51,555 bases of DNA from a virus. Position 1 is the stretch's first letter. Each line of letters starts with the position of its first letter. The notes under the pieces were generated by a model. The model worked only from the letters and a program-made list of their open reading frames with translations. It was not told where the DNA came from and searched no databases. The position numbers and the translations under genes were made by a program. Shown piece after piece: positions 86 to 15,588 of the stretch. The stretch covers positions 1 to 51,555 of IMG/VR virus record IMGVR_UViG_3300001525_000450; one strand, written 5' to 3'.

Positions 86-1063
86 TTACTCCTCCCAAGG
101 ACGTTTGTAAAGAGTTTTGCACAAATGTTTATTGTTTTTCGAAATGCTTCGAGCATAGCTCAAAATCTTGTCATTGGGTTCTGGCATATCTTCTTTGCCA
201 CGGCCATCAGGCAACAACCCAACACGATGACTCAATGCGTTGCACCCATAGCAGGGCTTGAAACTTCGTTCACCTGCATACAACAGAATTCGAGCAGCTT
301 CGAATCGTTTACTGTACCAAATGTTCTCAATGCTCTGCTCCATGATGTTGCCAATTGGGTACTCACCACGGAAGTCATTACAGCAGATTGCCACAGAGCC
401 GTCATAGCGGATCGCCAGCTCTCTGAAAGGACGAGCGCACCGTTTACCCTGATAGGACGTGTCAAGAGGTCCAGCTGCTCCACAGTGGTTGCACAGATGA
501 CGATTGATAGCTTTCTCTTTTTGAATCGGAGGATTGAACAAAACGCGGAAGCCATTAGCATTTGTACTGTACAAAGGAACCTTGGGTGCCAGATGTTCAA
601 TCTTCAGATCAGATACTTCCTGAAGAGCGTCCTCAATCGTTCGAGCATCACCTTTGTCAGCATAATAGTCGATGATCAGATCGTTAAGGCCAGCATCTCT
701 CAGAGCATAGACTCGATCAACAATAGTCTTTTGATCTGCTACCATGCCAAACCCATTGACAATGCCATAGCCATTGCTCATCATAGACATGACCGCTTTG
801 GGAAAAGCCTTTCTGAACATCTTGATGATTCTAACTGCATTAGAGTTAAGGGTTGGTTCTCCATGCATAGAGAAGATAAATCTGCTGTGCCAGCCAACAC
901 GTTTGACTTCAGCAATAATTCGCTCTGCAGTTTCTTTCTTCATGCGGTACCAAGGCTGAGTTCCTTTCTCTCGCATGCCACGAAGACCACAGAATTTGCA
1001 TCCCAGATTGCAGCCCTCATTCAGCTCAATCTGAATAGAATATGGTGGGCTCTGTTTTCTCAC
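86..1063 (-). CDS. radical SAM enzyme with C-terminal SPASM/twitch-like Cys-rich domain
   Basis: CNLGCKFC (CxxxCxxC) near the N-terminus. C-terminal CARPF..DGSVAICCNDF..GNI..SIENIW..CYGC resembles a SPASM domain. GTG start at 1063 follows GGGAGGA and overlaps the upstream stop as GTGA; the ORF-track ATG at 1084 is an alternative. Confidence 0.85.
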   Translation of the reverse strand: MRKQSPPYSIQIELNEGCNLGCKFCGLRGMREKGTQPWYRMKKETAERIIAEVKRVGWHSRFIFSMHGEPTLNSNAVRIIKMFRKAFPKAVMSMMSNGYGIVNGFGMVADQKTIVDRVYALRDAGLNDLIIDYYADKGDARTIEDALQEVSDLKIEHLAPKVPLYSTNANGFRVLFNPPIQKEKAINRHLCNHCGAAGPLDTSYQGKRCARPFRELAIRYDGSVAICCNDFRGEYPIGNIMEQSIENIWYSKRFEAARILLYAGERSFKPCYGCNALSHRVGLLPDGRGKEDMPEPNDKILSYARSISKNNKHLCKTLYKRPWEE

Positions 1064-2013
1064 TTTGATTCCTCCCAGAAACATTTGATTCTCTTGCTGC
1101 CATGGATCTTATGATAGGCTGTCCAATTGATGTCACCCCACATATAGTCACCATCGGCATCTCTGAAGCTGGTTCGCAGATAGTCCTTGATTGGGTATTT
1201 CTGCAACATATTGTATTCGTATCGATGAAGCTCTTTCTCAGTTTCAGGAGTACGAATAACACTATCGCACTTCTCACTCACATAGTCATATGTCAAGCAA
1301 GGAATATTGAAGCAGTGACCACCATTGGCAAGAATGACAGCACAGAACCCAATGTCGTCACCGTGACGATCAAAAATCATGTCACGATCAATCTTTGCCT
1401 TGTAAAGACCCTTGACATTTATCAAAGTGACCTGACGAGGGGTTGGACCGGAATCAACGATGTATTTCAGCTTGGCATTTTCCACATGCTGGGACATCCG
1501 TTGACGACGAATGTTACCCAAATAGACCTTTGGGTATGTCTTAAAAACTTCTTTGCCAATGACACCAGCCATTGTCAGAACTTTTTGCTCGAGCAGTGGA
1601 TCTGCTTCTCGATCTGCATTGATAGCATGCTTAGAACAAGGATTGCCAGACCCAGAGAACCCATCGTACATATACGCAAGATTGCGAATATCATCATCCA
1701 TGTCAATGATCATTGAATACTTATGCTCAGCGGCATACTCATAGATGAATTGACGAGTGCTGGCCAACCCATTGATTGGCAGATGAAAGTCTTTTGCGAT
1801 GGGTAGAATGTGAAGATTTGGATTTGCCTTTCGATAGGCTTTTGCTTGTTCCGGACGAACAACAATATGGATCTTTTCAAGAGCTTCTGGTTCAAAATTC
1901 TTGAACATCTCAGCAGTTACAAAGTGAGGTCTGTTGTACGAGGGAACAAATATATGAGGAAGTTGATTCACAGACAAGCTGTTAAGGTGTCTGTACATTT
2001 CTTGCTTTTTCAT
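1060..2013 (-). CDS. GT-A fold glycosyltransferase-like protein (candidate DNA-base glycosyltransferase)
   Basis: N-terminal IFVPSYNRP (GT2-type PxYNR motif) and DMDDD (DxD motif). GAGGTGA RBS upstream of ATG 2013. Sits directly upstream of, and is translationally coupled to, the rSAM gene. Confidence 0.55.
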   Translation of the reverse strand: MKKQEMYRHLNSLSVNQLPHIFVPSYNRPHFVTAEMFKNFEPEALEKIHIVVRPEQAKAYRKANPNLHILPIAKDFHLPINGLASTRQFIYEYAAEHKYSMIIDMDDDIRNLAYMYDGFSGSGNPCSKHAINADREADPLLEQKVLTMAGVIGKEVFKTYPKVYLGNIRRQRMSQHVENAKLKYIVDSGPTPRQVTLINVKGLYKAKIDRDMIFDRHGDDIGFCAVILANGGHCFNIPCLTYDYVSEKCDSVIRTPETEKELHRYEYNMLQKYPIKDYLRTSFRDADGDYMWGDINWTAYHKIHGSKRIKCFWEESK

Positions 2014-2025
2014 GAATTCACCTCA

Positions 2026-2058
2026 TAAAAAGTGCCCTCCCATGGGCTGAGAGGGCAT
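2026..2058 (-). terminator. intrinsic terminator-like hairpin between the SSB gene and the glycosyltransferase gene
   Basis: On the minus strand, UGCCCUC..(11-nt loop)..GAGGGCA is followed by CUUUUUAU. It lies 18 nt after the SSB stop and immediately before the GT RBS. Confidence 0.55.
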
Positions 2059-2076
2059 TTCAGTGATCAGGAGAGA

Positions 2077-2775
2077 TTATTCCTCTTCCCAATCGTCATC
2101 GTCGTCCTCGTCATCTTCTTCGACGGGTTCCGGCTTCTTCTTGGTTTTCTTTGCAGGTGCTTTCTTGGCAGGAGCTTTCTTCTTGGGGGCAGGCTTTTCC
2201 TCCTCTTCCTCGGAGTCATCCTCATCCTCGTCCCAGTCATCGTCCTCATCCTCTTCAGGATCAGGCTTCTTCTTGGCCGGAGCTTTCTTTCCTGCAGGCT
2301 TCTTCTTGGGCTTCGGAGCTTCCTCCTCGACTTCCTCCTCGTCCTCAGCAACATCCTCTTCATCGAAGCTGTCCTCATCCTCATCGTCATCATCCGACTT
2401 GGTTGCACCAGGCTTCAGATAGTCACTGACTCGAGCACGAATCTGACCGTTGTACTCCTCGTGAGTGACATTGATGTTCAGGGTCTTGCCGATCATGTTG
2501 TCAAGATCAACAGCGACCTTGCCATCGCATTTCATGCCGATGATCTGCAGCAGAGACTTGAACTTCCACAGAGCCTTGTCGGTGAGAACCAGATTGTCAA
2601 ATACCTTGACACCCTTGTCATCACCGGAAAGAATCTCAAAAGCAACCTGCAGCATGGGGTCACCACCCTGAGTATTCTTTTCCTGGATGTCAGAGATCTT
2701 GACATGATGGATACCCTCGCTTGCGCGCTGGAATGCCTCAACATTGGTAAAATCGATTTTAACTTTGCGTGCCAT
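2077..2775 (-). CDS. DUF669-type phage single-stranded DNA-binding protein with long charged low-complexity tail
   Basis: MARKVKIDF start with a GGAGG RBS; the ORF-track start at 2817 lies upstream of that RBS. The core ISDIQEKNTQGGDPMLQVAFEILSGDDKGVKVFDNLVLTDKALWKFKSLL fits the DUF669 pattern. The tail alternates D/E runs with KKAPAKK repeats and ends DDDDDWEEE. It sits next to the Sak4-like ATPase. Confidence 0.75.
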   Translation of the reverse strand: MARKVKIDFTNVEAFQRASEGIHHVKISDIQEKNTQGGDPMLQVAFEILSGDDKGVKVFDNLVLTDKALWKFKSLLQIIGMKCDGKVAVDLDNMIGKTLNINVTHEEYNGQIRARVSDYLKPGATKSDDDDEDEDSFDEEDVAEDEEEVEEEAPKPKKKPAGKKAPAKKKPDPEEDEDDDWDEDEDDSEEEEEKPAPKKKAPAKKAPAKKTKKKPEPVEEDDEDDDDDWEEE

Positions 2776-2816
2776 GATAGATACCTCCAAAATAGTGTTG
2801 TATATTTCCAAAGGCA

Positions 2817-3587
2817 TTATGCCTGTTGGTCAGTAGGATTCTCTTGGTTAAGGCCAAGAATTTTGATGAGCTTCTGATATGTGAGATCACGAACCTGAGC
2901 AGGAACTTTCAGATCCTTGGGCTTTTGGAGCTTGGTCCAATAATAAGGGTTCGGACCGATCTGACAGATATAGGTTGCAATTGTTTTATCAACCCCATCA
3001 ACAGTGATCTCTTTCTTTTTGATCAGGGTGTGAAGCCCATAATTAGACATGCCCTCAAGATATGTTCGAGCACCTTTTGTTGTGCTTGGGTGGATATCAG
3101 GAAGAATTTCGTCTTCCATACCCTCAAAGGAATCACTGACTTCATGACAACTGGCAAGAACCCAACAATGCTCAGCCAAACGATGGCAAAGACGAATGAG
3201 TTCTTCTGTCTCTGTTTTCAGATCACCCCACATCTGCTGAGTCATCTTCTTGTTCTTGTCAATTGCATTTTCCTTGATCCAGATATTCGTGACCATAGAA
3301 AATGTATCAGCGAATACTGTCTTATATTTGAGTTTCCCATGTTCTGCCGAATCGATTAGCTCCTTGAGTACTGCAGAGAGTTCTGCAAGATTTTTAATCC
3401 GTAAAGCCTTGATACCTTTCTTGGATTTGATGGTGTTGCTACCATCATCACCGACCTGAAGATATAGCATAGGCTTCGGAAAAGTAGAACCCAACTCTGT
3501 TTTGCCAGAGCCAGACTTGCCGTAAATCGTGACAAACTTATGCTGACCCAAATCAGCAATGTCAACGACCTGAGAAAGATATCCCAT
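2817..3587 (-). CDS. Sak4-like RecA-fold ATPase (AAA_24 family) recombination protein
   Basis: Walker A GKSGSGKT, AAGGAG RBS. Typical synteny with the DUF669 SSB and a Cas4-like exonuclease. Confidence 0.8.
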   Translation of the reverse strand: MGYLSQVVDIADLGQHKFVTIYGKSGSGKTELGSTFPKPMLYLQVGDDGSNTIKSKKGIKALRIKNLAELSAVLKELIDSAEHGKLKYKTVFADTFSMVTNIWIKENAIDKNKKMTQQMWGDLKTETEELIRLCHRLAEHCWVLASCHEVSDSFEGMEDEILPDIHPSTTKGARTYLEGMSNYGLHTLIKKKEITVDGVDKTIATYICQIGPNPYYWTKLQKPKDLKVPAQVRDLTYQKLIKILGLNQENPTDQQA

Positions 3588-3599
3588 ATGTCATACTCC

Positions 3600-4574
3600 T
3601 TAAATGAACTTTGAGTCATCACGCTCATGAATTTCGTATTCACGGGCAATGAGATTATCAACATCTCCCTCGGTCAATTCTGTGAAGCAGATATCTCTAT
3701 ATTCACAGAACTTACAATCAGGAGTCATGTTTTTTGTCTTATTCTTGTGACCTTGTCGTACAATATCACGACATGTGTATTTGAACCCATCGAAAATATT
3801 GTCAACCATAGAGGGTACAATATCAAGTTCACAACGGAAAAAGAAATTGCTGACATTATTGGCATACATATTGCCTTGTCGCAAGATCTCAATATCCGTG
3901 ATACCTTTGAGCTCACAAGCACGTCGCCAAGAAAAGGGTGTGATGTTATTGCTTTTTGCTTGAGAAAATTTTCCTGACTTGGGCAACCAAATTGGCATAG
4001 AAGCAGGAGTTGAATGAATGTAGTCCCAGATGAAAGACTTTGGCATGACCCCTGTCATGATGTACATGGCCTTTGCGTAAAGGTTCTTCTGAGTGTTCAT
4101 GACCAAGACATTCTGATCAGGCTTGCGATTGAATGTCTTATGATCACCCAGCTTGCACATCTTCTCACCGTTTCGTCTATACTTGTAGACTTCATCGATG
4201 ATGCCATTGAAGATGATTGGTTCACCCTTGTAAGACCCAATCTCAATCTCAAATGGACGTTCCGTCTGGGTCGGCTGAGGAGAGTCTTTATAGATCTCTA
4301 TGTAGTCAGAGAAGATCGACTGCAGATTGAAGAGATAATCCTCACCGAGCTCTTCTTGCCATTTGGGTGGAAGATCATAATATGCATCCCCAATAGCTTT
4401 TTGAGCTTGAGCAAGTTCTTCAGGTCTGTTACGAAGCTCAAGGAGCTTGTGAAAGTCTGTACCAAAATACAAAGGCTTCACTGGAGCATTTTTGCGAAGA
4501 CCCACATAATACCCAAGATAATGTTTATATGGGCATCGTAGATAGGATGCAAATCGTGAATAAGAAAATTTCAT
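3600..4574 (-). CDS. PD-(D/E)XK exonuclease, Cas4/RecB-like
   Basis: N-terminal FSYSRFASYLRCPYKHYL and a C-terminal Cys cluster (CKFCEYRDIC), typical of Cas4-like phage exonucleases. GAGAGG RBS. Confidence 0.7.
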   Translation of the reverse strand: MKFSYSRFASYLRCPYKHYLGYYVGLRKNAPVKPLYFGTDFHKLLELRNRPEELAQAQKAIGDAYYDLPPKWQEELGEDYLFNLQSIFSDYIEIYKDSPQPTQTERPFEIEIGSYKGEPIIFNGIIDEVYKYRRNGEKMCKLGDHKTFNRKPDQNVLVMNTQKNLYAKAMYIMTGVMPKSFIWDYIHSTPASMPIWLPKSGKFSQAKSNNITPFSWRRACELKGITDIEILRQGNMYANNVSNFFFRCELDIVPSMVDNIFDGFKYTCRDIVRQGHKNKTKNMTPDCKFCEYRDICFTELTEGDVDNLIAREYEIHERDDSKFI

Positions 4575-4593: not shown

Positions 4594-4670
4594 TGGTCGA
4601 GATGACAGGATTCGAACCTGCGACATCTTGGTCCCAAACCAAGCATTCTACCTGCCTGAATTACATCTCG
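4594..4670 (-). tRNA. tRNA-Pro (anticodon UGG), CCA encoded
   Basis: The reverse complement folds as a cloverleaf: acceptor CGAGATG/CATCTCG, D stem ATTC/GAAT, anticodon stem CTTGG/CCAAG with loop TTTGGGA, T arm GCAGG-TTCGAAT-CCTGT, then A-CCA. Confidence 0.85.
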
Positions 4671-4954: not shown

Positions 4955-5030
4955 TGGTGCCAGAAACAGGACTCGAACCTGCAATCAGCTGATTACAAAA
5001 CAGTCGCACTACCAATTGTGCTATCCTGGC
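4955..5030 (-). tRNA. tRNA-Thr (anticodon UGU), CCA encoded
   Basis: Acceptor GCCAGGA/TTCTGGC, D arm GCAC-AATTGGTA-GTGC, T arm GCAGG-TTCGAGT-CCTGT, A-CCA. The anticodon loop TTTGTAA is closed by only three Watson-Crick pairs, with mismatches at 27-43 and 31-39. Confidence 0.7.
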
Positions 5031-5249: not shown

Positions 5250-5600
5250 TCAGGCATCCTCGTACTCATCGTCGTCGACATCTTCCTCGTCGTCAACGAC
5301 CTCAGGCTCCGGAGCTTTCTTGGCTTTCTTGGCAGGCTTTGCAGCAGTCTTCTTGGCAGCAGGGGCTTTCTTCGCGGACTTCTTCTTTTCGGGTTCCTTT
5401 TCCTCGGTCACACGAGATGCACAGCGAGGAGTCTTGGCATCGATCTGCTTGCCAGTCTCACGGTCGAATGTGGTGGTGCGGCCGTTCTTCTGAACGATAG
5501 AGATCGTCTTCTTGTCAGAGGCAGTGATCTCGAACTCGCCGAGATACATGCCAGTGAATGCATACATGTGGATTTTTTCGCCTTTCTTACGAGTGATCAT
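5250..5600 (-). CDS. small protein with Lys/Ala/Pro-rich basic segment and acidic C-terminal tip (DNA-binding-like)
   Basis: GGAGG RBS, own promoter upstream. C-terminal half is EKKKSAKKAPAAKKTAAKPAKKAKKAPEPEVVDDEEDVDDDEYEDA. Confidence 0.7.
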   Translation of the reverse strand: MITRKKGEKIHMYAFTGMYLGEFEITASDKKTISIVQKNGRTTTFDRETGKQIDAKTPRCASRVTEEKEPEKKKSAKKAPAAKKTAAKPAKKAKKAPEPEVVDDEEDVDDDEYEDA

Positions 5601-11465: not shown

Positions 11466-11942
11466 TCAATTCACTGCATCAGGAGCATCCCAGCTGGTCA
11501 CCTGAACACTCTTCACACCGTTATATGCAAAGATCTGCTCTGTTTCCTCACTGATATACTGCTTGCGCCCATAGTACACCTCTGTGATTCCTGCAGCAAC
11601 AATAACACGTGCACAGGCTTCACAAGGATAGCGTGTTACATAGATTCGTCCACCTCGTGCAGATCTTTCCAGATGAGCAATAGCATCAACTTCACTATGG
11701 ATAGCACGGCAATCTGCAGGTCCACGATGGGTCTTATCATTGTTGCCATATTTCTTGATACGCAAGCAGCCCTCAAACTGACAAAGATTTGGGATTGTTG
11801 CATTTGCTCCAAAGGAGAGAATTCTGCCATGCTTATCTGTAATGCAAGACCCAACAGCAACTTTCAAGCATCCTGATCTTGATTCTGCATAGGTCTGAGC
11901 CATGTCAAGATATCTTTTGACAGGCATTTGTTCATTTGCCAT
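11466..11942 (-). CDS. deoxycytidylate (dCMP) deaminase
   Basis: HSEVDAI (HxE) and PCEACARVI (PCxxC) zinc motifs. MANEQ start overlaps the upstream stop (ATGGCAAATGA). Confidence 0.9.
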   Translation of the reverse strand: MANEQMPVKRYLDMAQTYAESRSGCLKVAVGSCITDKHGRILSFGANATIPNLCQFEGCLRIKKYGNNDKTHRGPADCRAIHSEVDAIAHLERSARGGRIYVTRYPCEACARVIVAAGITEVYYGRKQYISEETEQIFAYNGVKSVQVTSWDAPDAVN

Positions 11943-12129
11943 TGTTGTTCCTCTTTTCCTGTTCTTTCTGTTCACGACGAGCTTTCTCACGACGTGCTGC
12001 TCGGCACTCACTACAATGCGTGAAAGGCTTCAGCCCACGAGTTTCGAGCCAAGCCAGCTCGTTGTCAGAGATAGAGAAAGGACGATTGCAGGTCTTGCAG
12101 ATCCTCTGCTGACGATTGTTTTCTGCCAT
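11932..12129 (-). CDS. zinc-ribbon protein (zf-trcl-like)
   Basis: CKTCNRPFSISDNELAWLETRGLKPFTHCSECR, two CxxC pairs with a basic tail. GGAGG RBS. Confidence 0.55.
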   Translation of the reverse strand: MAENNRQQRICKTCNRPFSISDNELAWLETRGLKPFTHCSECRAARREKARREQKEQEKRNNNGK

Positions 12130-12144
12130 GATGAAGTACCTCCA

Positions 12145-13173
12145 TTATTTGTGTTGTTTGTATTTGACACGAGGACGACCAGTGCCCTCGATTGTCCGAA
12201 TGTATTTGCTGAGCTCACACATACAGTTTTCCAAGCTCATAATGTTAAGGCAACGATCATATATGGGAAGATCTATGAAAATTTCTCTCGGATCCCAATA
12301 CTGACCGTTGGGTTCCATGATCTTTGAGAAGATATGATCAACATTGTCTCTCAGCCAGAACAGTGCTTCTTCTGGAGACATGCCGTCATAGTCATCAAAA
12401 AGATAATCGAGTCCTTTCTTACACCCAGGGCCAGCTACAACAAATTCGTTTTCACTGAATGGGAACTCTTTTATATAGGTCAAGTCAACAAAGACTTGAT
12501 ATGCCAGAAAATCAGAGAATCCCTGAATCTCTTTGATGATCTCAAATGCAGCTTTTTGGTTACTGGCGTTCATGAGTCTATTGACTGTATCATGCTGCTG
12601 AAGCCATGGACCAAGATGGAACACTCGTAAAGGTATATCCTGTTCTACTCCGTCACTGAAATGATCAATATCTCCCCATCTCCAGGCCTGTTTTGTTCCA
12701 CCTTGATTATATGCTGAGCTCCACCATTTACGCTCCGGATCTTCTTCAAGGAGCCATTTGTAAATGGGTCGCACCAAAGACTTCATTCTTTGTGAAGAGT
12801 AAAGGGCTTTTGCTTGCCACGGACCACCAAAATCTCGCATTGTATCCCAGTTGTTCCATGCTCTAAAATAGAACGTATTGATGATTTTGTCAATCAGAGC
12901 AAGATCGGGATTGGTACTGATGTTTTTGATAAGATACTGGCTCTGACGATCATGTTCACGACGAACATTACAGAACTTGTACTGCTGCAGAACCCCATCG
13001 TTGGTCCAGGGAGCTTCTTTGTGAAGAACATCTTTGCGAAGATGAATTTTATATCGCTCTGTTACAAAATCATAGAATCTTCGCATGTTCTCAAGATTGT
13101 ACTTTGGGTTTGCAACTCGGATTTTGATCCTGTTGACACCACAGTACAACTTGTCTCGAGGTTTGGTTTTCAT
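12145..13173 (-). CDS. alpha-glutamyl/putrescinyl-thymine pyrophosphorylase-like (aGPT-Pplase-like) DNA base hypermodification protein, tentative
   Basis: APWTNDGVLQQYKFCNVRREHDRQSQYL matches my recollection of the PWTxDxIL..Y.FxNV.RE.DR signature of this phage family. ATG at 13173 with an AAGGCGGTG RBS, directly downstream of its own promoter. Confidence 0.45.
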   Translation of the reverse strand: MKTKPRDKLYCGVNRIKIRVANPKYNLENMRRFYDFVTERYKIHLRKDVLHKEAPWTNDGVLQQYKFCNVRREHDRQSQYLIKNISTNPDLALIDKIINTFYFRAWNNWDTMRDFGGPWQAKALYSSQRMKSLVRPIYKWLLEEDPERKWWSSAYNQGGTKQAWRWGDIDHFSDGVEQDIPLRVFHLGPWLQQHDTVNRLMNASNQKAAFEIIKEIQGFSDFLAYQVFVDLTYIKEFPFSENEFVVAGPGCKKGLDYLFDDYDGMSPEEALFWLRDNVDHIFSKIMEPNGQYWDPREIFIDLPIYDRCLNIMSLENCMCELSKYIRTIEGTGRPRVKYKQHK

Positions 13174-13203
13174 ATCACACCGCCTTTGCTTCAAGTATTA
13201 CAT

Positions 13204-13232
13204 ATTATACTCTCATATCGGACTATTGTAAA
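13204..13232 (-). promoter_or_regulatory. promoter of the conserved phage family (TTTACA-17-TATAAT)
   Basis: Minus strand reads aaaaatctcTTTACAatagtccgatatgagagTATAATat. The -35 overlaps the end of the upstream gene. Confidence 0.7.
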
Positions 13233-13813
13233 GAGATTTTTTCGTCCTTGTAGCAGTATTTGAGAACGTCCTTTTTGGCAGTCAGCAGCTTTTCAGTTCC
13301 TCTGAGCTTTTTACCATACCCATGAACAGCTCCACCACGACCGATGATCAACTTGCGATATCGCATAGTCTCTGCATCAATGTAGTATCTGATTTTTACA
13401 GTCATCAACCCATTGGCATCAACACACCAAGTTGTTTTCATAGAGTTAAAGCTGACACTGTCACAATCTGCCACCTCGTGCTTCAGCTGTGCCCAAGCAG
13501 CCATCTGCTTGGCATTTGGCTGACCCTCGCTTTTGGGAGATTTGGAAAAGTCCACGATCACCTGTCTCTTTGGGCTGGTGTCTCCTGTGGAGGGCTTTTC
13601 CTCCTCGTGGGTAGTTTTCTCCTCAGGTTCCTTAGAGAGCTCCACAGGAGGAGCTGCTACAACAGCAGAGACACGTCGTGTGCTGAGCGATTCAGGGTCT
13701 ACACTCAGGATTCCGGCCGTGATAGTTTTGGCCTGGGTGGCGGTCTCACACTTCACAGACCCAAGGACTTTCCCGTCCTTGACCATATTATAATAGTACA
13801 CTCGGATTCTCAT
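13223..13813 (-). CDS. hypothetical protein (196 aa)
   Basis: GGAGG RBS. The central P/E/K-rich linker separates two domains. Confidence 0.65.
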   Translation of the reverse strand: MRIRVYYYNMVKDGKVLGSVKCETATQAKTITAGILSVDPESLSTRRVSAVVAAPPVELSKEPEEKTTHEEEKPSTGDTSPKRQVIVDFSKSPKSEGQPNAKQMAAWAQLKHEVADCDSVSFNSMKTTWCVDANGLMTVKIRYYIDAETMRYRKLIIGRGGAVHGYGKKLRGTEKLLTAKKDVLKYCYKDEKISLQ

Positions 13814-14039
13814 TTTGGAACCTCCACAGTTTTCTTGTTTTATGATAGATATGAATAACGTCCATCACATCAGAATGTAACGTCGGATCGAGTTTTCTTA
13901 AACGAACTTTCATGTGCCAGCCAACAGTGCTGAGCGGAACATTGAAGTGCTCAGACACCTCTTTGTAAGTTGCCAAGTTCTTATTGATGTACCTTGCCTC
14001 CTCGAGAACAAAGTCATCAGTGTAGCTTCTCTTCATCAT
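13788..14039 (-). CDS. SpoIIID-like helix-turn-helix transcriptional regulator
   Basis: LATYKEVSEHFNVPLSTVGWHMKVRLRKLDPTLHSDVMDVIHIYHK parallels the SpoIIID HTH and its C-terminal part. GAGGTGG RBS before ATGATG. Confidence 0.6.
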   Translation of the reverse strand: MMKRSYTDDFVLEEARYINKNLATYKEVSEHFNVPLSTVGWHMKVRLRKLDPTLHSDVMDVIHIYHKTRKLWRFQNENPSVLL

Positions 14040-14049
14040 TCTGACCACC

Positions 14050-14709
14050 TCATTTTTTCAAGGAACGAGCGTCCATGCAAGCACGACCATCAGATAAGCC
14101 CTGGGTGTATGCATCATAGTTGACAGAGCCGGAGCTGGTCAGGCCACCTTTGTGAGTAGCAAGGCTGGGAAACTTGTCATGGAACTTGTCGTTGACATCC
14201 TGAGGAACAATCAGTACAAGAGCCTGGCACTGCTTGTCGAGCTTCTCACGAAGACCCCCAAGGAAGCCCATCACATAGCTGTTGAATACATTCTTGGTCT
14301 CAAGGCAATCACGACGAGCCTGACCAACGCAAGCATCACCCTGCTTCTTTGCGAAGTGATAGGCATATTCAAAAGCCGATTTGGCAATCTTGGCATCATC
14401 AGCATGACCGAAGAATGCGACCTGCTTGTTGCTGAGCAGAATAGTTTTGCAACGGAAATTGCGTGCAATGATCACTGCCAGCTGGCAACGGAACCCTTTG
14501 TTGCCTTTGTGCTCACAGGCTTCCAACCCATAGGACACAGGCTCGTCAACGTTGATCTCAACATCACTCATCTGAACCCCGTGTTCAGCCATGAGCTGCT
14601 GAGCCTTGAGAAGTGCAGCCTGAGCTTCAGCGTCACTGTCATTGCGTTTGCTATCAGCCAGGGCGAGCAGTTTCTGGATCTTCTTTACGATTGCATTGCT
14701 TTCAGTCAT
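14050..14709 (-). CDS. DUF2786-like protein
   Basis: N-terminal VKKIQKLLALADSKRNDSDAEAQAALLKAQQLMAEHGV fits the DUF2786 signature. AAGGAG RBS. Confidence 0.6.
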   Translation of the reverse strand: MTESNAIVKKIQKLLALADSKRNDSDAEAQAALLKAQQLMAEHGVQMSDVEINVDEPVSYGLEACEHKGNKGFRCQLAVIIARNFRCKTILLSNKQVAFFGHADDAKIAKSAFEYAYHFAKKQGDACVGQARRDCLETKNVFNSYVMGFLGGLREKLDKQCQALVLIVPQDVNDKFHDKFPSLATHKGGLTSSGSVNYDAYTQGLSDGRACMDARSLKK

Positions 14710-14769
14710 GATAATTCTCCTTGTGATGTTATTTTAAGAGCCATCCGCTCTGGGAGGGTTGTCATATAC

Positions 14770-14826
14770 AACTCCGACACCCTTTCGGGTGTTTCGTCGC
14801 AATTTTCAGCGACTCATCAGGGAGTC
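14770..14826 (-). ncRNA. type I hammerhead self-cleaving ribozyme
   Basis: Minus strand reads GACUCC-CUGAUGA-GUCGC-UGAAAAUU-GCGAC-GAAA-CACCC-GAAA-GGGUG-UC^GGAGUU. All core nucleotides are present (C3-A9, G12-A14, A15.1-U16.1, C17). Stems II and III are capped by loops and stem I is open. Predicted cleavage is between 14776 and 14775. Confidence 0.85.
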
Positions 14827-14828
14827 TA

Positions 14829-15004
14829 TTAGATTTGTACACCAAGCTTTTCTGCTGCAGCAGAAACGACTTTCTCGACTTCTTCAGGACTTGCTTCGTT
14901 CCACTCATCCTGCATATCAGCTGCCACACAAAGCTCAGCACAAAGGTCATAGTCCCAAAATCAAGCTCTCGGATGTCAACAGCAATTTCTTGAGGATCGC
15001 GCAT
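14829..15004 (-). CDS. promoter-proximal leader ORF; reading frame ambiguous (needs a -1 shift at TTTT 14960-14957 to reach the TAA at 14831-14829)
   Basis: ATG at 15004 with a GGAGG RBS gives MRDPQEIAVDIRELDF. The zero frame then becomes atypical and runs through the ribozyme to 14762. The -1 frame reads WDYDLCAELCVAADMQDEWNEASPEEVEKVVSAAAEKLGVQI and stops 2 nt before the ribozyme. Confidence 0.35.
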
Positions 15005-15055
15005 TTTAATTACCTCCAGTTGTTTGAGTGTTTTCTTGTTTCTTATTGTGACTAT

Positions 15056-15084
15056 ATTGTACTCCTCCTGCAAGCAATTGTAAA
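15056..15084 (-). promoter_or_regulatory. promoter of the conserved phage family (TTTACA-17-TACAAT)
   Basis: Minus strand reads caaaaggtcTTTACAattgcttgcaggaggagTACAATatagtcacaataag. Confidence 0.7.
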
Positions 15085-15113
15085 GACCTTTTGCAAAAAT
15101 TTCTGAAGGATTT

Positions 15114-15371
15114 TTAGAAGGTGTCCCGCAAGATATACCCATAGATAATTGTACCAATGATCAGACCGATTGTAAAATGTAAAGGGTAGATGTCACCAAA
15201 TACCCATTTGGCAATTCTGTAGATCAGCAATACCACAAAGGCGCTGGCAAGTGTAGAAAGGAAACATGTCCATATGTACTTGACAAATCGCTTGATGAAG
15301 CTCCACAGGTCTTTCAGGGCATCGTACTTATGCTCCAGTAGCTGAACAAATACACTATCATTGATCTTCAT
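15114..15371 (-). CDS. small membrane protein (two predicted TM helices)
   Basis: Hydrophobic stretches CFLSTLASAFVVLLIY and FTIGLIIGTIIYGYIL. ATG lies 1 nt after the upstream stop. Confidence 0.6.
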   Translation of the reverse strand: MKINDSVFVQLLEHKYDALKDLWSFIKRFVKYIWTCFLSTLASAFVVLLIYRIAKWVFGDIYPLHFTIGLIIGTIIYGYILRDTF

Positions 15372-15372
15372 T

Positions 15373-15588
15373 CTATATCCCCATTTCTGTTCTTCTATTC
15401 CATAGTGTGATGACCCTCTCTACTGCACTCCCAGAGGGAACGTTGTTCCCGCTCTTCATATCACATAGAATCTGGGTCTGAGCGTTGCAGTGAGAGCAAT
15501 AGATCTTTACTCCGGAGCCAACAAAGAGGTATGCCTTGCCACCACAGAATGGACATCTCTTGAGCTCAGGCATCTCGACTTTCGTCAT
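15373..15588 (-). CDS. Lar-family restriction-alleviation-like zinc protein
   Basis: LKRCPFCGGKAYLF...KIYCSHCNAQT...AVERVITLWNRR matches the Lar-family pattern (CPFCGG...C..C...WNRR). AAGGAG RBS before MTKVEM. Confidence 0.6.
   Translation of the reverse strand: MTKVEMPELKRCPFCGGKAYLFVGSGVKIYCSHCNAQTQILCDMKSGNNVPSGSAVERVITLWNRRTEMGI

Follow-up and report, generated by a model that had tools for sequence, protein, structure and literature searches.

An Intergenic Type I Hammerhead Ribozyme in a Phage Early Operon and Its Place in a Phage Subfamily

The window analyzed here, a stretch of phage DNA of 51,555 nucleotides, carries on its minus strand what we consider to be a genuine type I hammerhead ribozyme, a reading that is well supported by sequence, predicted fold, and relatives, and for which we infer catalytic activity from the complete match to the consensus core, taken together with the published activity of other phage hammerheads. 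The earlier description of this site was borne out: the hammerhead is of canonical type I and lies, in the coding orientation, in an intergenic gap of an early minus-strand operon. We regard it as quite probable that the element is an active, tertiary-stabilized ribozyme between a 58-aa early gene and a DUF2786/DUF7168 gene, where it would cut the early polycistronic mRNA.

From 14826 to 14770, the minus strand reads as the first-pass annotation had given it, GACUCC CUGAUGA GUCGC-UGAAAAUU-GCGAC GAAA CACCC-GAAA-GGGUG U C GGAGUU, placing in order the 5′ strand of stem I, CUGAUGA, hairpin II, GAAA, hairpin III, C17, and the 3′ strand of stem I (Table 1). This is the type I topology, with stem I open and stems II and III closed by loops. 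Stems I, II, and III comprise 6, 5, and 6 bp, respectively, and the closing pairs 1.1–2.1, 10.1–11.1, and A15.1–U16.1 are all Watson–Crick (G–C, G–C, and A–U). The invariant core is complete, as had been claimed, with CUGAUGA at 14820–14814, GAA at 14795–14793, and C17 at 14776; cleavage is predicted 3′ of C17, such that the 3′ product would start with G14775. The minimum free energy (MFE) fold of 65 nt is a three-way junction of –24.2 kcal/mol (z = –5.2), and none of 200 shuffles was as good.

Table 1. Features of the ribozyme and of its surroundings, in coordinates of the window
Feature	Position	Strand	Remarks
Type I hammerhead ribozyme	14770..14826	–	Sequence, MFE fold, subthreshold Rfam match, custom model, relatives
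Stem I 5′ strand GACUCC	14821..14826	–	Pairs with GGAGUU 14775–14770; outermost pair is a G–U wobble
Core strand C3-U4-G5-A6-U7-G8-A9 (CUGAUGA)	14814..14820	–	Invariant in the phage hammerhead alignment
Stem II GUCGC/GCGAC, closing pair G10.1–C11.1, 8-nt loop UGAAAAUU	14796..14813	–	Loop is the phage-subfamily signature
G12-A13-A14, stem III ACACCC/GGGUGU (A15.1–U16.1 and 5 pairs), GAAA loop, C17	14776..14795	–	
UAA stop of upstream gene (14831–14829), then U14828, A14827	14827..14831	–	Flank
Hairpin GG.AGUUGU-AUAUG-ACAACCC at the 5′ end of the predicted 3′ product	14756..14775	–	Competes with stem I
Upstream 58-aa gene	14829..15004	–	Intact in L001–L004; frameshifted in the window
Sigma-70-like promoter CTTTACA-N17-GAGTACAAT	15056..15085	–	Conserved in relatives; likely start near 15049
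Hairpin AGAGC-GGAUG-GCUCU in the DUF2786 5′ UTR	14737..14751	–	Predicted; in the window and all of L001–L006
Downstream gene, DUF2786 + DUF7168	14050..14709	–	SD AAGGAGA 14722–14716; ATG 66 nt past the cut

The sequence CTGANGA occurs 71 times in the window, counting both strands, and in a conditional-probability estimate around these sites the chance of random context completing a hammerhead with stems of at least 5/4/4 is 2.3 × 10^-5, corresponding to ~0.0016 per window. Stems of at least 6/5/6 did not arise once in 400,000 trials (<2 × 10^-4 per window).

The first-pass annotation had named the lack of a covariance-model hit as one of two observations that would count against its reading, and the Rfam search that it proposed returned nothing at the gathering thresholds. 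Below these thresholds, in a 401-nt scan, Hammerhead_1 (RF00163) matched exactly 14770–14826 with 20.1 bits (cutoff 34, E 0.027), and the best-scoring Rfam model was RAGATH-1-hammerhead, with 24.2 bits (cutoff 56.3). Rfam gathering scores are reached by none of at least 30 related phage hammerheads at 20 loci, and because these relatives also fail the thresholds, we read the subthreshold score as a blind spot of the Rfam models, which is no evidence against the ribozyme. The RF00163 gathering score is an operational annotation threshold, and neither a structural nor a biochemical defining feature. The Hammerhead_1 model, which we take to have been built mainly from eukaryotic satellite sequences, has topology and core in common with the window element and aligns to it end to end; however, its stems II and III are modeled with 3 bp and short loops, and the stems of the window are longer, with a score below gathering. 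Similarly, the element resembles RAGATH-1 in its type I architecture, short stem I, and long stem III hairpin, but its stem II is much longer and the defining upstream hairpin is unmatched. We rejected membership in RAGATH-1 (RF03152) at the score given above, with the upstream accessory hairpin aligning through noncanonical pairs. A covariance model of the phage relatives gives the window site 81 bits, a score that it has by construction, the window sequence being in the model. The next best site in the window scores 13 bits (25823–25885) and is without stem II, in agreement with the earlier claim that there is no second hammerhead.

Among GenBank phages, megablast found no match to positions 13000–17000 of the window. 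Four close relatives retain the element; in three of them (L001, L002, and L004, with DUF2786 proteins 93% identical) it is intact, and the stem I 5′ strand of L002, AGCUCC, keeps all six pairs (U–A becoming U–G, and U–G becoming U–A). In L003, the core reads CCGAUGA, a change of U4 to C that would be expected to impair catalysis; at least one lineage may therefore do without the element or be losing it, or this base may be a sequencing error. L005 and L006 are more distant (69% identical). Ahead of the same gene, they have a type I hammerhead whose core is unchanged but whose stems are wholly different, and a model built without them detected it at 20 bits (E 3 × 10^-4). Both have a promoter in the stretch from the ribozyme to DUF2786, and expression of the downstream gene therefore does not need the ribozyme.

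Of the cells in an alignment of 32 phage hammerheads, 95.3% are paired, and both partners vary in 14 of the 17 pairs. Because rows were chosen that had stems I and III, the percentage paired is inflated, whereas pair-type variety is not. The covariation score reaches 0.639, compared to 0.14 in shuffles, of which none of 500 reach it, and at most 0.117 with slid partners. Within the family, each of the six stem I pairs varies at both of its positions, and four of the six stem III pairs show compensatory changes, A15.1–U16.1 and C15.2–G16.2 being invariant. A loop-defined scan yielded at least 108 distinct phage hammerheads with loop II UGRRAAUU; in this set, stem II is always paired, in five sequence variants, with the loop conserved. 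Stem I is 5–6 bp long in 103 of the 108 members listed. In the flank, the listed members have A at –7 in 103, W at –8 in 102, and R at –6 in 105 of the 108 cases, and U14828, A14827, and G14826 are the corresponding W(–8), A(–7), and R(–6) of the window. The A at –7 is present in 35 of 38 hammerheads with the UGRRAAUU loop, compared to 8 of 18 with other loops (Fisher p = 2 × 10^-4), two groups that also differ in base composition. Taking this co-conservation together with the resemblance to the RzB/PLMVd motif described below, we infer that loop II may contact the W-A-R flank, which would then serve as its receptor in the window as well.

The RzB/PLMVd tertiary motif, as described in PMC11875169 and PMC4770207, joins a UGRRAU loop II to a UAA that bulges out 5 nt away from the core. 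According to these secondary sources and PMC1199579, the artificial hammerhead RzB (Saksmerprome 2004) has the type I topology, as does the window element. In both, loop II begins with UGRRA and ends with U, and the ribozyme strand has an unpaired U-A-A/R triplet 5–6 nt 5′ of C3. The natural loop, however, has 8 nt (UGRRAAUU) as opposed to the 6 nt of RzB/PLMVd (UGGGAU, UGAGAU, or UGAAAU), and whereas in RzB the UAA bulges out from within a long stem I, stem I of the phage elements ends after 5–6 bp and the triplet is a single-stranded flank, often a stop codon. With its 8-nt loop UGAAAAUU, U-A-G at –8 to –6, and a UAA stop just 5′ of this, the window resembles the RzB/PLMVd motif and is not identical to it. 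Stem II of the window, GUCGC/GCGAC, is identical to that of the RiboSoft "extended" design.

The placement of the subfamily is stereotyped. Downstream of a same-strand ORF lie 92 of 93 members, and in 51 of these 92 a stop codon ends on the flank (–10 to –4), this stop being UAA in 46; the median distance from the cut to the next SD and start codon is 40 nt. The window fits this geometry, with the stop ending at –8 and the ATG at +66. A constant partner gene was sought among 35 flanking proteins of the family loci and no association was found, these proteins including one each of an SSB, an HTH (Xre/Cro-type) regulator, and a superinfection immunity protein, with the others having no known match. 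Most members belong to phages or prophages of Clostridia from the gut, and Clostridia are the likely hosts of the window phage.

The surroundings of the ribozyme in the window were only partly as first described. The first-pass annotation had placed it between a promoter-proximal leader ORF and DUF2786/SpoIIID-like/aGPT-Pplase-like genes; the position in the gap, the DUF2786/DUF7168 gene, and the SpoIIID-like gene stand, but the two remaining labels do not. What had been called a leader ORF is the gene of a conserved 58-aa protein, which in the relatives reads MRDPHEIAADIRQLDFWDYNLCAELCMAADMQDEWNEASPGEVEKVVSAAAEKLGVQI followed by the stop codon, and of which the L004 copy is not promoter-proximal. 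The supposed aGPT-Pplase-like gene is a 196-aa ORF without a Pfam match, and the gene after it encodes a 5-hmdU DNA kinase. The ribozyme lies in a 118-nt noncoding gap on the same strand, from the 58-aa stop (14829) to the DUF2786 ATG (14709). In the relatives, the 58-aa gene has a TAA or TAG stop just ahead of the ribozyme; in the window, it is apparently frameshifted, a T run having lost 1 nt (T4 at 14960–14957, compared to T5 in L001–L004), which results in a spurious 131-aa ORF (15157..14762) that reads through the ribozyme. The promoter upstream of this gene occurs six times in the window, in nearly identical form, as compared to 0.03 matches expected. On the minus strand from this promoter (15085–15056) to the next one at 13233, we found no intrinsic terminator. 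The phage, of ~51 kb, also has a Lar-like anti-restriction gene nearby.

In the mechanism that we propose, the operon would be transcribed from the sigma-70-like promoter or from farther upstream, and the ribozyme would fold once its last strand (14775–14770) leaves the polymerase and cleave itself between C17 (14776) and G14775. Because of the type I topology, nearly the whole ribozyme would stay on the upstream fragment, which would keep the stem I 5′ strand, stem II, and stem III and end in a 2′,3′-cyclic phosphate. The mRNA of the small gene would in this way gain a compact structured 3′ end right after its stop codon, and the downstream mRNA (DUF2786, SpoIIID-like, and 196-aa genes) would begin with 5′-OH GGAGUU, 66 nt before the start codon. 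The net effect would be to uncouple the stability and translation of the neighboring cistrons while transcription continues, with presumed consequences for RNA stability. The glmS ribozyme likewise cleaves itself in a 5′ UTR to leave a 5′-OH mRNA, the fate of which is set by 5′-end-dependent RNases of the host; in Bacillus, RNase J1 reportedly degrades this 5′-OH product (a finding attributed to Collins et al. in 2007). glmS, however, senses a ligand, whereas the window hammerhead is without ligand sensing.

An additional hairpin that had been claimed at the 5′ end of the 3′ product does form in silico, but no better than in shuffles (z = –0.78), and for the 3′ products of the window lineage shuffles pair as often (0.56–0.67). 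As a general stabilizer, such a 5′-terminal hairpin was rejected, with at least four stem I nucleotides paired in 22 of 55 products as compared to 17.7 expected from shuffles.

Secondary-structure thermodynamics assigns the hammerhead fold a probability of ~0.64 when transcription is just past 14770, and of ~1 × 10^-4 once the SD region (14722–14707) has been made, where CUCC.CUGAUG can pair with CAUCA..GGAG. Cleavage would therefore need to be fast and cotranscriptional. A doubtful but wider reading would make the whole subfamily a translation-coupled processing device, in which the UAA stop doubles as the loop II receptor, such that a terminating ribosome and the active fold would be mutually exclusive, and in which uncut transcripts of the window phage would refold, with the 5′ half of the ribozyme masking the DUF2786 SD. 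If this were true, cleavage would have two roles, giving the upstream mRNA a 3′ end that needs no terminator and licensing downstream translation.

The narrower possibility of a translation switch licensed by cleavage, which we consider improbable, concerns the window phage itself: in uncleaved RNA, CUCC.CUGAUG (14824–14815) would pair with CAUCA..GGAG (14727–14717) and mask the DUF2786 SD, only cotranscriptionally cut transcripts would free it, and the speed of the ribozyme (responding to Mg2+, temperature, or ribosome traffic on the upstream stop) would set DUF2786 output. The MFE structure of the 181-nt context indeed forms the alternative CUCC/GGAG pairing instead of stem I, and the fall in fold probability upon adding the SD region is the same in L001, L002, and L004. 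We note, however, that C-rich stem I strands are trivially complementary to G-rich SDs, that covariation is uninformative where the paired segments are identical in close relatives, and that the energy model leaves out tertiary stabilization and ribosomes. Moreover, in L005 and L006 the SD region is conserved, yet stem I of their ribozyme cannot pair with the SD and a promoter intervenes. Nor is the effect family-wide, as many members keep a probability >0.3 with 90 nt of downstream sequence; SD sequestration as a property of the whole family was rejected, members being heterogeneous in this respect.

Returning to the active ribozyme that we favor, the changes in the core of L003 and in the upstream gene of the window, where the frameshift could reflect relaxed selection on the region, would also fit an inactive relic, that is, a hammerhead descendant with no useful cleavage rate or function, persisting as a neutral passenger or as a stable pair of hairpins. 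The scores under the Rfam thresholds could be read in the same way. We consider this very improbable, given that the core nucleotides, closing pairs, and subfamily loop and flank of the window are all intact, that the stem I changes of L002 keep pairing, and that a different hammerhead occupies the equivalent place in the diverged L005 and L006. That the element is not a ribozyme at all, its hairpins being an intrinsic terminator, a protein-binding element, or part of the 131-aa ORF that spans it, is scarcely tenable despite terminator-like hairpins at 14773–14789 and 14811–14826 in a consensus scan, since hairpins alone leave 11 unpaired core nucleotides, invariant across >100 relatives, unexplained. 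Two specific forms of this reading were rejected: the terminator-like matches are on the plus strand only, antisense to the operon, and no U-run follows the minus-strand stems; the coding reading is an artifact of the 1-nt deletion, the gene of the relatives stopping before the ribozyme.

Hammerheads of phages and prophages are known to flank small genes and to cleave both in vitro and in E. coli, and processing of polycistronic RNA has been proposed as their function (PMC3088659; PMC6155905); catalogs of such elements in phage operons date back to 2011, yet their biological role is still treated as open in the literature (PMC6155905, PMC6765202). The window ribozyme is an ordinary further example of these, and the locus alone adds little. 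Like those of Perreault 2011 (PMC3088659), it combines the consensus core with a place on the coding strand of a phage operon, where its neighbors are small genes of poor conservation. The anti-restriction gene nearby is Lar-like here and ardA there, and the role proposed there, polycistronic RNA processing, is the same as that proposed here.

The wider pattern is more useful than the locus: more than 100 phage hammerheads are missed by the Rfam thresholds and carry an RzB-like loop-and-flank signature with stop-codon placement, and routine annotation thus under-calls ribozymes in phage genomes. In the main texts of the phage-hammerhead papers, we found no description of the UGRRAAUU loop II, the W-A-R flank, or the stop-codon placement. 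The stereotyped geometry suggests two hypotheses, one that the upstream cistron owes its 3′ end to the ribozyme and the other that cleavage interacts with translation termination.

The window genome has a single hammerhead, as opposed to the cluster in the phages of Perreault 2011. Other ribozyme classes occur in the same genomes, as they do with the Perreault 2011 hammerheads, with pistol in the family loci and twister in the window phage, where a conserved twister ribozyme lies ahead of the tRNA genes.

On the minus strand, positions 14826 to 14770 read GACUCC-CUGAUGA-GUCGC-UGAAAAUU-GCGAC-GAAA-CACCC-GAAA-GGGUG-U-C-GGAGUU, identical in sequence and position to the type I hammerhead proposed in the first-pass annotation. 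The three-way junction is both the minimum free energy (MFE) and the centroid structure of the isolated 65-nt segment when folded in silico, at -24.2 kcal/mol compared to -11.6 ± 2.4 kcal/mol for shuffled sequences (z = -5.2). There are 71 CTGANGA heptamers on the two strands of the window; based on 400,000 random contexts of the same base composition, the probability of chance completion to a hammerhead with stems of at least 5/4/4 pairs is 2.3e-5, or 0.0016 per window, and stems of at least 6/5/6 pairs were obtained in none of these contexts (<2e-4 per window), confirming that the observation is far beyond chance. Judged from sequence, all defining features of a type I hammerhead that can be tested in silico are present, bar the Rfam score threshold, with catalysis being predicted; the annotated finding is real and its interpretation correct in the main. 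Two further sites, a hammerhead-like one without stem II at 25823-25885 (plus strand; 13 bits with a custom model) and a weak STnc320 match at 47240-47294 (minus strand; 31.7 bits, cut-off 50, E 0.047), are probably due to chance.

Coordinates of the hammerhead, the surrounding genes and promoters, and other ribozymes and tRNAs (L-numbers denote phage loci with related hammerheads)
Feature	Position	Strand	Remarks
Stem I		minus	GACUCC/GGAGUU; six pairs, outermost a G-U wobble
Core C3-A9	14820-14814	minus	CUGAUGA
Stem II		minus	GUCGC/GCGAC; closing pair G10.1-C11.1; 8-nt loop
G12-A13-A14		minus	between stems II and III
Stem III		minus	six pairs from A15.1-U16.1; GAAA loop
C17, cleavage-site nucleotide	14776	minus	predicted 3' product starts at G14775
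Lar-like restriction alleviation protein	15373-15621	minus	
85-aa ORF		minus	between Lar-like gene and 58-aa gene
58-aa gene	15004..14829	minus	directly 5' of hammerhead
DUF2786/DUF7168 gene	14050-14709	minus	downstream of hammerhead
SpoIIID-like protein	13788-14048	minus	
196-aa ORF		minus	no Pfam hits
5-hmdU DNA kinase	12145-13194	minus	
dCMP deaminase	11466-12011	minus	
D5-like primase		minus	beyond dCMP deaminase
Promoter copies	17883-17854, 15085-15056, 13233-13204, 6098-6069, 5682-5653	minus	
Promoter copy	31610-31639	plus	
116-aa gene	5250-5600		stop codon 18 nt before twister
tRNA-Thr(UGU)	4955-5030		~120 nt past twister
tRNA-Pro(UGG)	4594-4670		downstream of twister
Pistol ribozyme	L044:12299-12360		above Rfam gathering score
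Pistol ribozyme	L049:2962-3025		above Rfam gathering score
Pistol ribozyme	L050:2217-2290		above Rfam gathering score

The covariance-model check of the annotated motif gave a divided outcome, as Rfam 15 at gathering thresholds returned two tRNAs only and no hammerhead across the whole window, whereas a relaxed-threshold scan of 401 nt around the element aligned Hammerhead_1 end to end with exactly 14770-14826, albeit at a sub-threshold score (20.1 bits, cut-off 34, E 0.027). In the same relaxed scan, RAGATH-1-hammerhead scored 24.2 bits (cut-off 56.3), its characteristic upstream hairpin being unmatched. Across 20 loci carrying at least 30 unambiguous phage hammerheads of this type, none of these reached the Rfam gathering score, while three pistol ribozymes within the same loci did. 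Because these related hammerheads fail as well, and because the Rfam type I model is built for very short stems II and III, we take the failure to be a property of the model and not of the sequence; the score threshold is an operational criterion, not a structural one. The pistols lie from a few hundred bases to a few kb from hammerheads of the subfamily described below, and no hammerhead of their three loci exceeds the Rfam thresholds.

The relatives of the element were collected from IMG/VR in two scans. The first (CTGATGAGTCGC-N(4-12)-GCGACGAAAC) returned 51 loci, most with the loop UGAAAAUU or a UGRRAAUU variant, and most with stems I and III that are complete yet unrelated in sequence. 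In an alignment of 32 of these hammerheads, standard pairs occupy 95.3% of the cells, as opposed to 68.4% after shuffling and 28-44% when partners are slid, both-side changes are seen in 14 of 17 pairs, and the covariation score is 0.639 (0.14 in shuffles); as the rows were picked for having stems, the percentage paired is inflated, whereas the range of pair types is not. The second scan used core and loop only (CTGATGAG-N4-TGRRAATT-N4-CGAAAC), which avoids selection on stem II, and gave at least 120 loci and at least 149 distinct contexts. Among the matches listed, 122 of 149 contexts are complete type I hammerheads by strict rules, and 108 of these differ from one another in stems I and III. 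All 108 listed have a fully paired stem II, in five sequence variants (GUCUU/AAGAC 60, GUCGC/GCGAC 37, GUCGU/ACGAC 6, GUAUC/GAUAC 3 and GUCUC/GAGAC 2), stem I comprises 5-6 bp in 103, and 99 have C17. Conservation in the same listed set extends to the three bases preceding a 5-bp stem I, namely W at -8 (102/108), A at -7 (103/108, background A 0.36) and R at -6 (105/108). A at -7 is found in 35 of 38 subfamily members vs 8 of 18 other-loop hammerheads of the same loci (Fisher p = 2e-4), two groups that differ in base composition. With U14828, A14827 and G14826 preceding its core and loop UGAAAAUU, the window element is a typical subfamily member.

This combination of loop and flank resembles a known tertiary stabilizing motif. 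The RiboSoft "extended" designs read UAA-N5-CUGAUGA-GUCGC-UGAAAU-GCGAC-GAAAC (PMC4770207); the phage subfamily carries its W-A-R equally far from the core, and its loop is UGRRAAUU. From the co-conservation and this resemblance, we infer that the subfamily comprises "extended", fast hammerheads in which loop II would dock on the 5' flank. Stem II and loop are found in the same form in 21 GTDB species genomes, mostly MAGs of gut Clostridia (Lachnospiraceae, Oscillospiraceae, Ruminococcus, Monoglobus and Christensenellaceae), which, consistent with the SpoIIID-like gene, suggests a Bacillota host. Several loci carry multiple ribozymes: seven type I hammerheads within ~4 kb in L008 (about 530-4560), each between small genes, four plus one pistol in L044, and three in L082.

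No GenBank phage matched window positions 13000-17000 at the DNA level (megablast), and six IMG/VR contigs of 42-53 kb (L001-L006) encode a homologue of the DUF2786 protein. An intact hammerhead occupies the same place in L001, L002 and L004 (93% DUF2786 protein identity); L002 has the stem I strand AGCUCC in place of GACUCC, so that a U-A pair becomes U-G and a U-G pair U-A, with six of six pairs kept. In L003 (93% identity; L003:2876-2948), the core reads CCGAUGA, a U4-to-C change that should impair catalysis, and this copy may be inactivated or may reflect a sequencing error; unless the latter is the case, the element can decay. A 3-nt deletion in L003 also moves a TAG stop onto stem I. The most informative relatives are L005 and L006 (69% identity), where a type I hammerhead with an identical core but three stems unrelated in sequence (CCCGC/GUGGG, G-A-GCUGG/CCAGC-C and a longer stem III) lies 5' of the same gene, and was detected at 20 bits (E 3e-4) by a covariance model built without them. 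In both, a copy of the phage promoter intervenes between the ribozyme and the DUF2786 5' UTR, and thus the ribozyme sits at the end of the upstream unit; in this lineage, DUF2786 expression is clearly independent of it.

In the window, early and replication genes form a long minus-strand block, within which the hammerhead occupies the coding strand. The downstream labels DUF2786 and SpoIIID-like of the first-pass annotation hold, whereas its "aGPT-Pplase-like" label was not confirmed, the 196-aa ORF and then the 5-hmdU DNA kinase being found there. This kinase, whose closest cultured-phage homologues (Aeromonas and Salmonella phages) are <40% identical, forms a thymidine-hypermodification gene set with the dCMP deaminase (11466-13194, minus strand). 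An extended sigma-70-like promoter, CTTTACA-N17-GAGTACAAT, upstream of the ribozyme is one of six near-identical copies of CTTTACA-N17-(G)AGTAYAAT in the window (0.03 expected), which are found again in relatives and mark the phage transcription units. The next minus-strand copy downstream is that at 13233-13204, and a consensus scan of the minus strand between the two gave no terminator-like site, placing the ribozyme inside a polycistronic unit of same-strand genes, as originally proposed. Upstream of the DUF2786 start, a hairpin AGAGC-GGAUG-GCUCU (14737-14751, minus strand) followed by UUAAAAUNACAUCACAAGGAGAA (14736-14712) is shared by the window and each of the six relatives, and is a possible 5' UTR stabilizer or regulatory element; in L005 and L006 it would form the extreme 5' end of the promoter-proximal transcript.

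The window ORF list also contains a 131-aa ORF (15157..14762) traversing the ribozyme, which we reject as a coding sequence, as it is an artefact of a frameshift at a T4 run; the relatives' gene stops before the ribozyme. Where the relatives have GATTTTTGGGAC, the window has GATTTTGGGAC, i.e., T4 at 14960-14957 vs T5 in four relatives, and a fifth T restores a conserved 58-aa protein ending with TAA at 14831-14829, two bases 5' of stem I. The window copy is thus frameshifted, which may be a mutation or an assembly error. What had been described as a promoter-proximal leader ORF is therefore a real gene, a conserved 58-aa one, and it is not promoter-proximal in L004.

This placement recurs across the subfamily. 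Among the matches listed, 93 distinct members have enough flank for a survey of gene position, and in 92 of these an ORF on the same strand, 50 codons or longer, ends no more than 150 nt upstream. Its stop codon ends 4-10 nt before C3, on the conserved flank, in 51 of the 92 listed (UAA in 46), and a Shine-Dalgarno sequence with start codon follows in 74 listed members, at a median of 40 nt past the predicted cut (quartiles 31-68). The first, smaller hammerhead set shows the same pattern, and the window agrees with it (stop ending at -8, ATG at +66). These stop and start positions argue that the ribozyme is linked more closely to where the upstream cistron ends than to where the downstream one begins, with which the L005/L006 arrangement agrees. 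In 9 of the 92 listed, the upstream frame enters the ribozyme and its apparent stop is the UGA within CUGAUGA, a core that contains stop codons in two frames. No constant identity was found among 35 flanking proteins (one SSB, one Xre/Cro-type HTH regulator, one superinfection-immunity protein and others unassigned), in agreement with Perreault et al. 2011 (PMC3088659) and a 2017 review (PMC6155905).

The best explanation is that the nascent early transcript self-cleaves between 14776 and 14775, with the ribozyme body, owing to the type I topology, retained on the upstream product. Right behind its stop codon, the latter would carry a 2',3'-cyclic phosphate after two stable hairpins, and thereby plausibly gain a 3' end that resists exonucleases and needs no terminator. 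The downstream product would begin with 5'-OH GGAGUU, with an effect on the DUF2786 mRNA, protecting or exposing, that would depend on the host: in Bacillus, RNase J1 degrades the 5'-OH product of glmS, whereas RNase E prefers 5'-monophosphate ends. The hairpin that had been suggested for this new 5' end does form in silico, but is indistinguishable from chance here, and is not enriched in the family (22 of 55 members vs 17.7 expected).

When more downstream sequence is added, stem I is lost from the predicted MFE structure, and the ribozyme CUCC.CUGAUG pairs with a CAUCA..GGAG segment containing the DUF2786 Shine-Dalgarno sequence. At equilibrium, the hammerhead fold has a probability of ~0.64 for a transcript ending at 14770 and ~1e-4 once 14720-14707 is present, a collapse which suggests that cleavage must be co-transcriptional. 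It could also be read as masking of the DUF2786 Shine-Dalgarno sequence in uncleaved RNA, which we consider improbable: close relatives share the drop in fold probability, but it is not general across the family, and the underlying energy model ignores tertiary contacts and ribosomes.

The element is typical of a phenomenon that is already known, as phage and prophage hammerheads between small genes, active in vitro and in E. coli, were described in 2011 with a proposed role in polycistronic transcript processing (PMC3088659), and their biological role is still called open (PMC6155905, PMC6765202). Our search of published papers, in their main text, found no instance of the loop and stem sequence, and earlier descriptions of the subfamily signature and stop-codon placement may or may not exist. 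Greater interest would attach to the element only if the translation-coupled or Shine-Dalgarno-masking readings were true.

Finally, a twister-P1 match lies at 5231-5152 on the minus strand, with 31.8 bits (cut-off 67.2; E 0.005 over the whole window), and 7 of 10 related contigs have homologous hits of 36-56 bits at this place. Once aligned, they display compensatory changes in P2 (UGUG/CACA, UGCA/UGCA, UGUA/UACA) and in both pseudoknots, which a covariance model cannot score (T1 AC:GU vs GC:GC; T2 GGC:GCC vs GAC:GUC), making this a probable genuine twister of type P1. A possible role is to free a tRNA precursor from the mRNA, and the location of the twister in front of the tRNA genes is noteworthy in its own right.
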